Assembly: GCA_044229845.1 (NCBI GenBank)
Contig: JBGASG010000005.1
Coordinates: 192,001 to 256,000 of the forward strand
Reading direction: 5' to 3'
Origin: Candidatus Obscuribacteraceae bacterium
GTDB taxonomy: Bacteria; Cyanobacteriota; Vampirovibrionia; Obscuribacterales; Obscuribacteraceae
DNA: 64,000 nucleotides
The notes under the pieces are model-generated. The model was given only the letters and a program-made list of their open reading frames with translations, did not search any database and was not told where the DNA came from. This document shows, in pieces, positions 6,277 through 15,470 of the stretch; position 1 is the stretch's first letter; each line of letters opens with the position of its first letter. A program made the position numbers and the translations under genes.

Positions 6277-7290
6277 GTGCTAGACCAAATTGAGCCGCTT
6301 AAGTCAGAGAGTGCAGCAGGGCAGGAGAAAGGCAACCTGCAGGACTACCGAGTTCAACGCACAAGCGCCGAGCCACAGGATCGGGATCCCAATGCGCCGT
6401 TGATCAGTGCCAATGTTTTGCCGGAGGTCGAACTCTGTCATGCACAGATCAGAGCACCGGGGGCGCCGGTTGATCCGCCTCTGGACAACAATCCCTACAA
6501 TCCGCGTGGACAGCGCACCTTGACTGAGCCGGCGACCTCCACGTGGGATGACTTCAACGACGCAATGCGCGACGCTATTGGTTTGGCACCGGACGATCGC
6601 AGTGGAATGCGGCGCCGCGTAGTGGGCCAACCGAATATCGAGATTGTCGGCAACCCAACTAACATCGACCAGATGACCGAAGCGATTGGTCGGCTGCCGC
6701 CGGAAGTGAGGCAGCTTCTCGATGAGAAAGGTTACAAGTTTGTCCTGACGGACAACTTGCGCAATCACGACCCGATACTGGTCGATAACCAACCGACCGG
6801 CTGGCAGCAAGGATCTTCGTGGAGAAATGCTGATGGCCGTTTCCAGAACGATAAGAATGAAATCGTAGTCGCCAGTCATGCCGTCGATTTGTATCTGCAG
6901 CAGTACAGAGAGTCCACGCGCGGCAAAGGAGTTTTGCTGCACGAAACCGCCCACGCTGTGGACAAAGCGCTTGGCTATTTCTCTGACAGCAAGGAATTTA
7001 AAGAGGCGTACGAGCGGGACATCGCCAACCTTTCCCCCGAAGATCGAGCGAAATACTCTTACTACCTGACCAGAGTTGCAAGCAGCGCAGATCCTGCGGC
7101 TGCCGGACGCGGCGAAGCATTCGCGGATGTTTGGGCCGAGATGAATGGATCGGCCGCCAACAAAGATCCCGACCTACTGGCGAAATTCCCTAATGTGAAG
7201 AAGGCAATCGAAGAGCGTATGGAGCGCCTGCGCCAGGAGCAGGACGCGACGCGCGCCACATATCAGTGGAATTCGGGATTTCCTGGTTAG
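6277..7290 (+). CDS. Zinc metallopeptidase, anthrax lethal factor / Pro-Pro endopeptidase-like
   Basis: LLHETAHAVD (HEXXH), downstream GEAFAD third-ligand motif, SDSKEFKEAYERD segment; GGAG RBS. Confidence 0.75.
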   Translation: MLDQIEPLKSESAAGQEKGNLQDYRVQRTSAEPQDRDPNAPLISANVLPEVELCHAQIRAPGAPVDPPLDNNPYNPRGQRTLTEPATSTWDDFNDAMRDAIGLAPDDRSGMRRRVVGQPNIEIVGNPTNIDQMTEAIGRLPPEVRQLLDEKGYKFVLTDNLRNHDPILVDNQPTGWQQGSSWRNADGRFQNDKNEIVVASHAVDLYLQQYRESTRGKGVLLHETAHAVDKALGYFSDSKEFKEAYERDIANLSPEDRAKYSYYLTRVASSADPAAAGRGEAFADVWAEMNGSAANKDPDLLAKFPNVKKAIEERMERLRQEQDATRATYQWNSGFPG

Positions 7291-7449
7291 TTTTGGGGAG
7301 TTGCGAGCCGGTTCCGCAGCAGTCCGGTACGATGCCCTGGATTTGAAAAAAGGGCATTTCACAAAATTGCCACGCCTTCCTGATATAAGGAAAGTCCTTG
7401 CTCGCTGCTTCGCCTCTCCAGGGGCTTACTAATTTCGCTGGTAACACTC

Positions 7450-12336: not shown

Positions 12337-12857
12337 TAACGTGACATCCCTTCATTTCCGTCGGCCGCGCTCTTTTCGGCTCTTTGCGACCGCGACTAAT
12401 TATAGCGAAATGGGGGATTCGCTTTCCGCGTAATCTGCTTCATGTAGTAGGTCTTGAAAGCCTGCCCCTGCTGATTCGGGCATGCGCCCGGGGCCGCCAA
12501 TTGCATGCAGGACCGGGCACCACCGATGGTGCAGGCGTTGACCCATCCCAAACGGCGCCTGGGAAAAAGTCCCGGTTTAGCGTAATGCGACTTGAGGGGC
12601 AAAAAGATAGAGCTGCTGCCGAAAAGGCGCTACGGGTTGGGCTTTCGGCTGATGCGGCTTTGCGTAGGGCATCTCATGACAATCCCGGTATTCCGGGACA
12701 ATTTCCCAGGTGGCGCTCAGGGGCTCCGGCTAAATCGACAGGTAACGTCTCGGTAATACCTTCCTGCTAGTGTGGTTGCCAAGGATTAAGACCCACCGCA
12801 ACCAGAATCCATAAAGAGACCCTTTCAGGGGTCGCATTCACTCAGGGAGGATACGCC

Positions 12858-15470
12858 TTGGTTGATCACCTTGACGCGCCTTTGGAGCCGTTAAAAGGTC
12901 CCGCTACGGACGGACTGGATGACGTCCGTGCGACGGCGCTGAGTGATGCGAGCGTGCGTGCTGCTGTCTCTCACGATGGGGTGGGAGACAGTAATACGCC
13001 GTTGGTGTCGGCACGCTTGATACCGCCGATGATTCTCGTTGATGCGCGTGACCGTCCCGGGGAACCGCAGTCCGCAGCTGACGCGTTCAATCAGCTCGGA
13101 GACCGATCCCAGCCAGGCGGCGACAAAGTTTTTACCACTCCCGACGGCAATCAGGTCGTGACCAGACCGGATGGTTCGACGATCTACAGGGATGCGAACA
13201 ATCGCGTGTTCGGCGTTCGTTATCCCAACGGCGACATGCGCACTTTCACCTACAACTCAAAGGGTGAAGTCGACACCGTCATGGAGAACAACCGCCTCTA
13301 CACCGTCAACGGCGATCGTGAATTGGTCGGACCGGACGGCAAACCAACGGGTTTGAAGATGCCACAGGTCACGAAGGAAGGCACCTACATCTTCACCGAT
13401 TCGCAACGGGGAATTCACTTTCAATACAGCGATCGCCGCGAGTCGATTTCGCAGAACGACGGTTCGACACTTAGTAAGGATGGCGATGGGCGCATCACGG
13501 GTATCCGTTACATCGACGGCACGCACCGCTACTTCGAGTATGACGAACGCGGACGCACGAATGGCATCATCGACTGTGACGGCAAACGTTATGGGTTTGT
13601 GGCATCGTTCGATGCACTAGGCATGCGCTTCGGCAGCTTCAAGGCCGCTGGCGGTACGACCATGAGCGATGTTTCGCTTGAGCCCGATGGTACGCTGCGA
13701 TTCGAAGACCAGGACGGCAAGCTCCACACTGACTATGCAAGCGGCAACTCGTCGCGGACAACTTTGACCGCCGGCGAACTGCGCAATATGGCGATGCTAC
13801 TGCGCATCACTGACTGGGCAGTCACCAGCAATGAAACTATTCGCGAGACAGTCGCCAAACTCCTGCCCAGTGATCGAGTTGCGCTCGATCGCCAATACAA
13901 AGAAATGTATGGAGAAACACTGACCGACCATCTGAAAGCCCAGCGCTGGAACCCGCTCAAGCGCGAGGCCGTAGATGCGACGCTCAGTATGTTGTCGGAA
14001 GCCCACTTGCGCGAGGCAGTGCAGAAGGCTTTCAGCGATCACAGAGATGTGTTCGCTGCCGAGACCCAATTGTTCGACTTCAATCAGCGGGCAGCCAGAG
14101 CCGGTTTGACGCCTGAGCAAATCATCGCGGTGCGCGAGAAAGCCGCCGCAGAATTGCAGAACAACGACAAGTCACCGAAGGGCAAATTGGAGTCGCTGGA
14201 AAAAATCTTCACCGAAGCCGCACCAACCATGCGGGCTCTTGAAGAGAGATTCGGCGTCACGTCCACCGAGGTTGTCCGCCCCGACGGCACGCGCGTTCGT
14301 CGATACTATGTCGAGGGAGAAAATGGTCAGAAGACGCAGGTCCTCGACACCACCAGCGATGATCCAAAGGAAATCGAACGCCAATTAACTCAATGGCGTG
14401 AAGCCAAGATCAAAGAGATTGAAGCAAAGTACAATCTGCAGATCAGTCGCGATGGACAGACTGACCGCCTGCAGGGCAAAGATGCCGACTTGCGCGCGCC
14501 GCGCATCGACGAATTGCTGGCGCTCGAGCAAGCCGCGATGCGCTCGCAGCCCAGTGCCAGATCAGCCAACGGCAAGCCGGTGCGTGTCGAGTTTACCGTA
14601 CGCCCGTCGACTCCATATGACGCGTATGTGCCGGGACGTGTCAGCGACGATGAGCAGGAGAGAATCGTTTTCGAACCGCTGTCACGGACGTTCAAAGGCT
14701 TCAAGGATACGGCGATGCACGAGTTTGCCCACATCGGCCAACACAACATGCGCCAGCGCGATGCCGCGGCTCTCGACACGGCATTCGAAGCGATGGGCTA
14801 TCGCAGAGTGAAGACCGATGACGGGGCGATGCAATGGCAACTAAAAGGAAAGGACGGCAATTACTACACTGAGAATCCGAACGGCACCGGTTGGACGCGG
14901 GTAGATGAAAAAGGGCGTCCGCTCAAGACTGACGGCAAACCTGCCTCCGGATTTAAAGATAAAGACGCAGTCACGATCAGCAGCACGGAGATACAAGAGC
15001 GCGCCGTAGTCAGACCGGCATCCTGGTACTTTACCAACCCCGTCGAAAATCAAGCCGAAGGGTTGTGGCTCTTCAGAGGTGGAGAACAAGATCGCACGCG
15101 GCTCTTCACCACATCTCCCGAGCTGTACAAGATCATCAAGGAATACGACCAGAAAGAGATCGATGCCGATCCGCGGTACGGGAAGAATTCCGACGGCACC
15201 GCCAAGTTTATTCGCTTGCCTGACGGAACCATAGGCGAGAACAACGAAGCTAACCGAGCCATAGTGACTCAGTTCGAAAAGAAAATGCCTCGTCCTTTTG
15301 TGTTCGGAGTTCCGGAAGTTCGGTCACCGCAACCTTGGGATAAGGAAACCAAGTCGCCCAGCGACTCCGGTCAAAAACAGCGTGACCCACGTCCGGTTCC
15401 TACCCATCCCGGCGGCACGCTGCCGCGCATCATGCCGTCATGCCCGTGCTGTGCCAATCAAGCAGGCTGA
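12858..15470 (+). CDS. Large effector-like protein: YD-like beta repeats, annexin-like helix, HEXXH zinc peptidase
   Basis: YPNGDMRTFTYNSKG and YIDGTHRYFEYDERG repeats; QYKEMYGETLTDHLK; MHEFAH with downstream NPVENQAE; GGAGG RBS before TTG start. Confidence 0.7.
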   Translation: MVDHLDAPLEPLKGPATDGLDDVRATALSDASVRAAVSHDGVGDSNTPLVSARLIPPMILVDARDRPGEPQSAADAFNQLGDRSQPGGDKVFTTPDGNQVVTRPDGSTIYRDANNRVFGVRYPNGDMRTFTYNSKGEVDTVMENNRLYTVNGDRELVGPDGKPTGLKMPQVTKEGTYIFTDSQRGIHFQYSDRRESISQNDGSTLSKDGDGRITGIRYIDGTHRYFEYDERGRTNGIIDCDGKRYGFVASFDALGMRFGSFKAAGGTTMSDVSLEPDGTLRFEDQDGKLHTDYASGNSSRTTLTAGELRNMAMLLRITDWAVTSNETIRETVAKLLPSDRVALDRQYKEMYGETLTDHLKAQRWNPLKREAVDATLSMLSEAHLREAVQKAFSDHRDVFAAETQLFDFNQRAARAGLTPEQIIAVREKAAAELQNNDKSPKGKLESLEKIFTEAAPTMRALEERFGVTSTEVVRPDGTRVRRYYVEGENGQKTQVLDTTSDDPKEIERQLTQWREAKIKEIEAKYNLQISRDGQTDRLQGKDADLRAPRIDELLALEQAAMRSQPSARSANGKPVRVEFTVRPSTPYDAYVPGRVSDDEQERIVFEPLSRTFKGFKDTAMHEFAHIGQHNMRQRDAAALDTAFEAMGYRRVKTDDGAMQWQLKGKDGNYYTENPNGTGWTRVDEKGRPLKTDGKPASGFKDKDAVTISSTEIQERAVVRPASWYFTNPVENQAEGLWLFRGGEQDRTRLFTTSPELYKIIKEYDQKEIDADPRYGKNSDGTAKFIRLPDGTIGENNEANRAIVTQFEKKMPRPFVFGVPEVRSPQPWDKETKSPSDSGQKQRDPRPVPTHPGGTLPRIMPSCPCCANQAG

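Follow-up and report, generated by a model that had tools for sequence, protein, structure and literature searches.

The window analysed here is a 64,000-nucleotide stretch of the genome of a Candidatus Obscuribacteraceae bacterium (G000:C22:192001-256000; contig JBGASG010000005.1), whose assembly (G000) comprises 5.16 Mb and is 88% complete. It encodes three candidate effectors, the hydrolases 6277, 7450 and 12858, each named by its start position, whose N-terminal leaders carry a common short Leu-Pro (LP) motif. All three genes are on the forward strand, 3′ of two giant open reading frames (ORFs), and what reads from its sequence as a succinate dehydrogenase-like operon lies between 7450 and 12858. 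Obscuribacterales are uncultured non-photosynthetic relatives of cyanobacteria, and the homologues discussed below carry the source label Candidatus Obscuribacterales. Presence of the cargo families and of the chaperone-like TY-Chap1 was counted in 18 genomes of the family and 12 others, and that of export-machine genes in 21 genomes of the order and nine genomes of the class outside it (22 and nine for FHIPEP). G001 is a genome of the same genus, and f2 denotes another family within the order.

Each of the three proteins joins a leader to a different cargo (Table 1). The zincin of 6277 matches PF07737 with an E-value of 2e-5 and 24.8 bits, under the 27.4 cut-off, and the Pro-Pro endopeptidase 6fpc with an E-value of 0.028; the HEXXH and the downstream Glu are both present, and among homologues this type of zincin is mostly C-terminal, on varied N-terminal parts. 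The predicted model of the C-terminal domain of 7450 aligns with SleB (4fet; Z 12.4, root-mean-square deviation 3.1, 115 of 122 residues aligned) and with a second SleB structure (Z 12.1), the next-ranked row scoring 4.7, and 7450 falls into Atlas clusters labelled Hydrolase_2 (0.92-0.93). Residue E262, at the end of the first long helix, is invariant across 54 sequences, and we take it to be catalytic. The repeats of 12858 match RHS_repeat with an E-value of 0.0055, and the YD repeat model matches as well. The earlier note, a reading of the window made without database searches, had described these cargoes as effector-like (a lethal-factor-like zincin, a SleB-like peptidoglycan hydrolase and a YD-repeat HEXXH protease) and lacking Sec signal peptides, and both descriptions are supported, that of the zincin by a match below cut-off. 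No XVIPCD-type Pfam match is present on any of the three proteins. Their cargo families occur in 16, 17 and 8 of the 18 family genomes, respectively, and in none of the 12 others; that of 7450 was not found in G001. Residues 73-190 of 7450 (window 7666-8019) form a confidently modelled alpha/beta domain whose best structural match (Z 4.7) is not a clear one and which recurs in many proteins of the family, some of 4800 aa.

The starts of 6277 and 12858 are preceded by GGAGG ribosome-binding sites. That of 7450 is not, and its next in-frame start codon falls within its motif; the leaders of its four close homologues (P0002-P0005) are of the same length and keep LVxxxxLP, so that the motif lies inside the protein. 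The earlier note had allowed that the true starts might lie downstream of the motif, which these sites and leader lengths argue against. Contigs from RNA libraries (runs X1, X3 and X5) start at 7414-7421, two of them span the 7450 motif, and 6277 is uncovered; they are a weak hint of transcription at most.

Table 1. Coordinates of the features discussed, in positions of the 64,000-nucleotide window.
Feature	Positions	Strand	Description
6277, candidate effector, 337 aa	6277..7290	+	Hydrophilic leader and C-terminal ATLF/PPEP-like zincin (HETAH ... GEAFA)
7450, candidate effector, 405 aa	7450..8667	+	Leader, unnamed alpha/beta domain (73-190) and SleB-like peptidoglycan hydrolase (240-385)
12858, candidate effector, 870 aa	12858..15470	+	Leader, YD/RHS-like repeats and HEFAH...ENQAE metalloprotease motif
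Leader motif of 6277	6397..6435	+	Residues 41-53, LP at 48-49; kept in P0088 and P0089
Leader motif of 7450	7591..7629	+	Residues 48-60; LVxxxxLP kept in P0002-P0005
Leader motif of 12858	12999..13037	+	Residues 48-60; core in 20/25 homologues
16-bp DNA box	6137..6152	+	GGTAAC-N5-GGTAA type, promoter-like; upstream of 6277
16-bp DNA box, second copy	12741..12756	+	Upstream of 12858
Candidate immunity/partner gene, 132 aa	15522..15920	+	Paralogue directly behind the 12858 paralogue on C9, E 4.6e-32
Giant protein 337, 1928 aa	337..6123	+	~85-aa domain (1718-1802) common to the C18 giants beside VirD4, E 2.7e-7
Tad pilus locus	40082..47364	-	TadC, TadB, TadA, CpaE, TadG-like, CpaB, TadE, Flp-like; rival exporter
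TY-Chap1 (CesT/YbjN-fold), 151 aa	52171..52626	-	PF22551 E 2e-10; true start later than that of the listed ORF

The motif strings lie where the earlier note had placed them in all three ORFs. The consensus offered there, L[IV]xA[NR][VIL][LI]PxxxL, holds in its core, which recurs, and is overfitted in its exact form: [IV] at the second and A at the fourth position are not family-wide, and the full pattern matches only these three of 26,420 ORFs of G000, a circular result because it was fitted to them. The wider core is [LF]P-x-[LIV]-x-[LIV], found about 45-100 residues into a hydrophilic leader and recurrent across the Obscuribacterales, of which the form in the window is a long variant, hydrophobic-x3-[GNKR]-x-[LI]P-x-hydrophobic-x-hydrophobic. 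The N-termini of homologues from other genera have LP-x-[LIV]-x-[LIV], often after a short helix with a G, N, K or R cap, and the predicted model of 7450 places a helix (42-51) ahead of its LP. No Pfam or NCBIfam model spans the motif. Behind it are found, elsewhere, RHS repeats, LysM, FHA/annexin, trypsin, EF-hand and SLT domains, and in some proteins nothing known, a spread over unrelated signal-less cargo such as the earlier note had anticipated. Its description of the three proteins themselves as unrelated is right for the cargoes and not for all of the leaders: those of 6277 and 12858 are homologues of each other (33% over 61 aa, with a pairwise E-value of 2e-6), and as the two genes also have an upstream DNA box in common, they represent one leader on two cargoes and not independent cases.

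Three further observations concern such leaders. A second leader motif, L-x-F-D-N-x-I-Y, lies at the same depth in six proteins without the LP motif (P0133, P0134, P0142, P0225, P0245 and L023). A protein that by eye is prohibitin/band-7-like (G000:C1:884581-885681) shows the motif as a VP-G-L-T-L variant within a hydrophilic leader. The VirB4 of operon B (see below) has LP-x-L-x-V at residues 43-49 in G010 and G016 (L118-L121), which may be chance.

The enrichment of the motif was examined with the window genes left out and with composition controlled by shuffling each sequence. The core pattern had been picked after homologues from other genera and some G000 proteins had been viewed, and the first tests were therefore not blind. 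Among the hydrophilic-leader proteins of G000, 14 of 335 carry the motif at residues 26-110, compared with 4.2±2.2 after shuffling (none of 300 shuffles reached 14), and the controls gave 5/277 for the next 85 residues and 21/1000 for a sample of other proteins (20.1 expected). In the loci from other genera, 5 of 53 leader proteins carry it against 0.55 expected, three of the five being already known when the pattern was chosen; the remaining proteins there are raised too (18/408 versus 8.4), partly from overlapping loci. Of 151 cargo homologues, eight were removed for a hydrophobic N-terminus and 12 for a short leader; reducing redundancy among the rest left 51 leaders, 12 of which have the motif (0.6 expected). 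The long form seen in the window occurs in 7 of 130 (0.1 expected), and the core in 41 of 78 homologues of 7450 and in none of eight distant relatives without such a leader; the 7450 and 12858 homologue sets (41/78 and 20/25) are each internally related, and their independence is overstated.

A blind set was then available in 149 new zincin homologues from a 50%-identity library, of which 23 with short N-terminal parts, 11 without Met and four with signal peptides were removed. The strict motif is present in 14 of the remaining 111, compared with 1.7±1.3 after shuffling (0 of 2000 shuffles reach it), and a looser motif gave 17 matches, all at positions 49-100, compared with 0/62 at residues 131-240; here, as with the downstream residues in G000, the motif is confined to the N-terminus as the earlier note had held. 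Zincin homologues with hydrophilic leaders have it in 19 of 61 cases and the others in 1 of 54 (p 1.5e-5); many of these 54 resemble, by eye, what we take to be phage head-morphogenesis fusions. Two expectation-maximization searches recovered the LP motif, one ranking it top (132.9, compared with 113-119 in shuffled controls run with fewer restarts) and the other second (136.6, compared with 88-97 in 20 equal-restart shuffles) behind a motif belonging to another shared segment. A de novo search on 41 homologue N-termini returned shared domains only, and the LP motif is absent from the top 40 of a four-position pattern enumeration. With a matrix trained on other genomes, the 6277 site is not the top score in its own protein; a 34-column profile over five genomes found little beyond its own training sites and was uninformative on G005, f2 and the outgroups. 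In about 340 kb of the relatives' VirD4, Tad, pilin and random loci, matches fall in membrane and housekeeping proteins, and 19 carriers have no clear positive C-terminal tail (mean net charge +0.9 versus +0.4). Judged by these sequence comparisons the motif is real and not chance, yet it is weak alone and informative only together with the leader.

The DNA box upstream of 6277 and 12858 is a genus-limited direct repeat, mostly followed by a TGnTA-like -10 element. There are five sites in G000, all intergenic (those outside the window are C14:13113, 14993 and 119916), six in G001 and none in 17 other family genomes; for the core alone, five were found versus about 1.5 expected. Of the six distinct sites, four lie ahead of motif carriers, one of these being an extra G001 site before an ORF with LP at residue 55; of the other two, one precedes a member of a family found behind YD-repeat genes and one a pilin-like gene. 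No other connection of motif carriers to a possible machine part was found than this box, and it is a thin one. Two of its sites flank an OmpR-family gene (C14:13142), a candidate regulator.

Pairing of a 15522-type gene with a 12858-type gene recurs in two paralogous loci, with gaps of 52 and 66 nt, as expected of an immunity gene, and 15522 is a candidate for this role; no immunity-type gene was seen behind 6277 or 7450. The leader of the giant protein 337 has no LP motif. Among other neighbours, an alpha/beta hydrolase (window 15917-16858) has eight or more close paralogues in G000, and the motif carrier C6:120622 has two of these as neighbours. A paralogous family of 180-270 aa without a Pfam match lies directly behind YD-repeat or motif-bearing genes and may supply immunity proteins or adaptors (G000:C3:41237, C3:45083, C3:48810, C1:447248, C1:962132, C14:12312 and C18:116638). 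Elsewhere in the window are a SUKH/SMI1-KNR4 immunity-type protein (27504-28631) and a Fic-domain protein (54314-55945).

A variety of candidate export machines is encoded. FHIPEP (FlhA/SctV) was found in none of the 22 genomes of the order and in all nine others, and neither FliP nor PF05943/PF04984 (VipB, sheath) was found in G000, one genome at the completeness given above; no type III secretion system (T3SS) or type VI secretion system (T6SS) gene was thus found. Negatives for single families are weak, PF03135 itself having missed the VirB4-like genes. All 21 genomes of the order have a VirB4-like ATPase, which falls into two lineages, and 20 of them have a copy at ≥76% identity; outside the order, seven of nine class genomes gave no match to the order-type VirB4 and two gave one of 24-25% identity. 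The VirB4-like ATPase is recognised with an E-value of 5e-58, below equivalog cut-offs, and scores best with monoderm/F-type models. VirD4 was identified with PF02534 (E 2e-17) in G001 and with PF10412 (E 9e-9) in G000. Operon A (G000:C17:20254-33815; L082, L083) has genes for four membrane proteins, two of them large and two small, and for an OEP-like protein. Candidates for VirB2, VirB3, VirB6, VirB8 and an outer-membrane core are named from size, hydrophobicity and synteny, with no family match, and the putative VirB6 and VirB8 would be products of operon A. Operon B (G000:C13:1-13000; L124/L125 in G001) leaves the contig end in G000, and was read in relatives, where it has a second VirB4, a VirD4 and a MOBC-type relaxase. 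The two operons suggest a domesticated conjugation system, chromosomally encoded across the Obscuribacterales.

A further VirD4-like gene, among whose neighbours no relaxase ORF was noted, is present in 19/21 genomes of the order and 0/9 outside it. It adjoins a HerA-like ATPase in 11/11 family loci and giant signal-less proteins in 9/11; these giants have a common C-terminal region (DUF7718 in the two G000 giants scanned), possibly a second, C-terminal signal. The G000 locus (C18:209349-245012; L076, L077, L134, L135; L189-L200) has two VirD4-like genes, the HerA-like ATPase and giant LysM/DUF7718 proteins, and the HerA-like ATPase is 76-84% identical within the family, with 3-4 matches per f2 genome. 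A pilin-like family is arranged in tandem arrays in the order and is present in 21/21 order genomes and 0/9 outside. Its members at G000:C14:119241-119765 and C19:176585-179038 have a conserved 100-aa core, mostly 77-85% identical, and the domain also forms a C-terminal fusion part in ~1000-aa proteins (C18:13456 and C19:81986). The predicted model is a plain helical hairpin with no specific structure or fold match, leaving the pilin identity unconfirmed; DUF3852, an Atlas lead for this protein, was set aside with a score of only 0.83.

We propose that the motif is probably a Sec-independent export or targeting tag. Taken as a whole, the data can tentatively be read as modular hydrolases with a family-wide Leu-Pro leader tag for antibacterial effectors, possibly read by a VirB4/VirD4 system. 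Recognition of the tag by this type IV-like system is, taken by itself, possible, and this system, which was outside the view of the earlier note, is the best candidate exporter, ahead of a T3SS-like route, for which no export gene was found. The leader would stay unfolded, and the short helix with its G, N, K or R cap would, together with LP-x-h-x-h (h, hydrophobic), dock as one beta-strand on an adaptor or on the coupling ATPase; the cargo would then enter a neighbouring cell or reach its surface, the site of action of the cell-wall hydrolase or protease, and existing leaders would be joined to new cargo, much as happens in polymorphic toxin systems. The whole path from motif to delivery, including export and the receptor, is one that we infer. 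Further-reaching, and doubtful, is a picture in which a domesticated, order-wide type IV-like machine, with its two VirB4 lineages, several VirD4 proteins and tandem pilin arrays, delivers dozens of polymorphic effectors through the LP-x-h-x-h strand with the help of a T3SS-type chaperone adaptor in hosts lacking a T3SS, the hosts being unrecognised bacterial antagonists or predators.

Several observations weigh against this proposal. N-terminal sites were not enriched genome-wide in scans with weight matrices of 7 and of 17 sites (in one of the two, 6/25 versus 5.8 expected), nor in a further matrix test (6/15, p 0.08); of the motif models and scans of the kind suggested in the earlier note, the pattern tests show enrichment in leaders and the matrices do not show a genome-wide bias. 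The strict motif is missing from most leader proteins (97/111 in the blind set), and in 7450 orthologues it is no better conserved than its surroundings (38-46%, compared with 36-70% for the rest of the leader). Known signals of type IV secretion system (T4SS) effectors are often C-terminal, as is the XVIPCD in the available text of PMC8740702. In part, the system resembles a DNA conjugation apparatus: Replic_Relax (MOBC-type) follows the operon-B VirD4 in G010 and G013, with a similar ORF in G001 and G016, and operon B appears from its gene content to serve DNA transfer, the relaxase not being found in G000, where the operon runs off the contig end. The giants beside the relaxase-free VirD4 are without the motif, and linked substrates may use another signal. 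G005 and family f2 have type IV-like genes too, and none of the three cargo families was found in them; TadA (21/21 order genomes, 4/9 outside) is as order-wide as VirB4.

The distribution of TadA bears on an improbable alternative, that a Tad-pilus-linked or other contact-dependent machine reads the tag in place of the type IV-like system. Tad-dependent prey killing occurs in Myxococcus, and G000 has two Tad loci, one lying 25 kb away from the effector genes; however, the TadA-bearing genomes outside the order are ones where the cargo families were not found, none of five strong DNA boxes lies within a Tad locus, and we know of no Tad system that moves signal-less cytoplasmic proteins. The protein at 52171, which the earlier note had recognised as CesT/YbjN-fold and which proves to be TY-Chap1, raises the unlikely alternative, compatible with our proposal, that the motif is its binding site through beta-strand addition, the chaperone keeping the cargo unfolded and passing it on. 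TY-Chap1, with two copies in G000, matches the range of the cargoes (16/18 family genomes, 0/12 others), and the alternating hydrophobic pattern of the motif suits a beta-strand; in the part of PMC13466201 that was available, the N-terminal segment bound by class I chaperones follows a flexible tail and extends a beta-sheet. Both TY-Chap1 genes are, however, away from motif carriers, G005 has TY-Chap1 yet none of the three cargo families was found there, and this route too faces the lack of T3SS export genes in the searches above.

The leader might instead be a docking, anchoring or processing site in or on the producing cell, serving self-assembly, surface display or cleavage and not export. 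Some carriers have no evident toxin domain (C1:33860, of 152 aa; C14:14764; C18:2855; an EF-hand protein), and SleB-like or LysM cargo could also serve to remodel the wall of the producer itself; we consider this unlikely, as peptidoglycan hydrolases without Sec/Tat signals would still need an exit route, and the paired downstream genes and variable presence (7450 in G001, for example) fit conflict systems. A functionless likeness, left over from common descent or arising from composition, would accord with the homology of the 6277 and 12858 leaders, with the low information of the motif and the behaviour of its matrices, and with homologue sets that are not phylogenetically independent. It is largely refuted and has little left to recommend it, since the motif persists in the 51 non-redundant leaders without other detectable similarity and in representatives below 50% identity, and since shuffles control for composition and the downstream controls are at background.

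The lineage-specific leader motif on effector-like proteins is real and apparently undescribed: no description of it or of the system appeared in literature searches on the lineage, TY-Chap and T4SS signals, whose coverage of subscription papers is small. It picks out a candidate effector arsenal from sequence alone, and makes the lifestyle of the Obscuribacterales testable. Were a type IV-like system indeed to read a short N-terminal linear tag, this would be unusual among modes of T4SS substrate recognition; the only precedent for an N-terminal T4SS signal among the papers covered is an artificial reporter (PMC10100965, seen in part).

Comparison with known systems shows a variety of partial likenesses. 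As with the effectors of the Xanthomonadales T4SS (X-T4SS), so far as the accessible text of PMC8740702 describes them, there is a chromosomal T4SS, antibacterial hydrolase cargo and a shared non-catalytic element. That element is there the XVIPCD, a folded C-terminal domain of ~120 aa proposed to be read by VirD4, whereas here it is an N-terminal motif of ~12 aa in a hydrophilic leader, its binding is predicted only, and the VirB4 is closest to monoderm/F-type. The T3SS class I chaperone-binding domain (PMC13466201, in part) similarly has a flexible polar N-terminal tail and a short hydrophobic strand, and a chaperone of the same fold is encoded here; unlike in T3SS, no T3SS or flagellar export gene was found. 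The leader tag thus falls outside both classes, lacking the XVIPCD that defines the one and the export apparatus that defines the other. Polymorphic toxins and T6SS MIX effectors likewise combine a shared N-terminal trafficking part with variable C-terminal cargo and a downstream candidate immunity gene; here the tag is a short linear motif and not a domain, and no T6SS or sheath gene was found.

Vampirovibrio chlorellavorus, of the same class, has a T4SS proposed for predation, which according to the available portion of PMC4451040 is T-type and partly plasmid-borne, unlike the VirB4 system of the order. The domesticated T4SS of Patescibacteria, as given in the sections of PMC12102498 at hand, is similarly chromosomal, with a lineage-wide VirB4 akin to monoderm conjugation and tandem pilin-like arrays. 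Those clusters are mostly without a relaxase, whereas one operon here keeps a MOBC-type relaxase, and the Obscuribacterales differ further in having two VirB4 lineages and several VirD4 proteins in a diderm host of 3-8 Mb.

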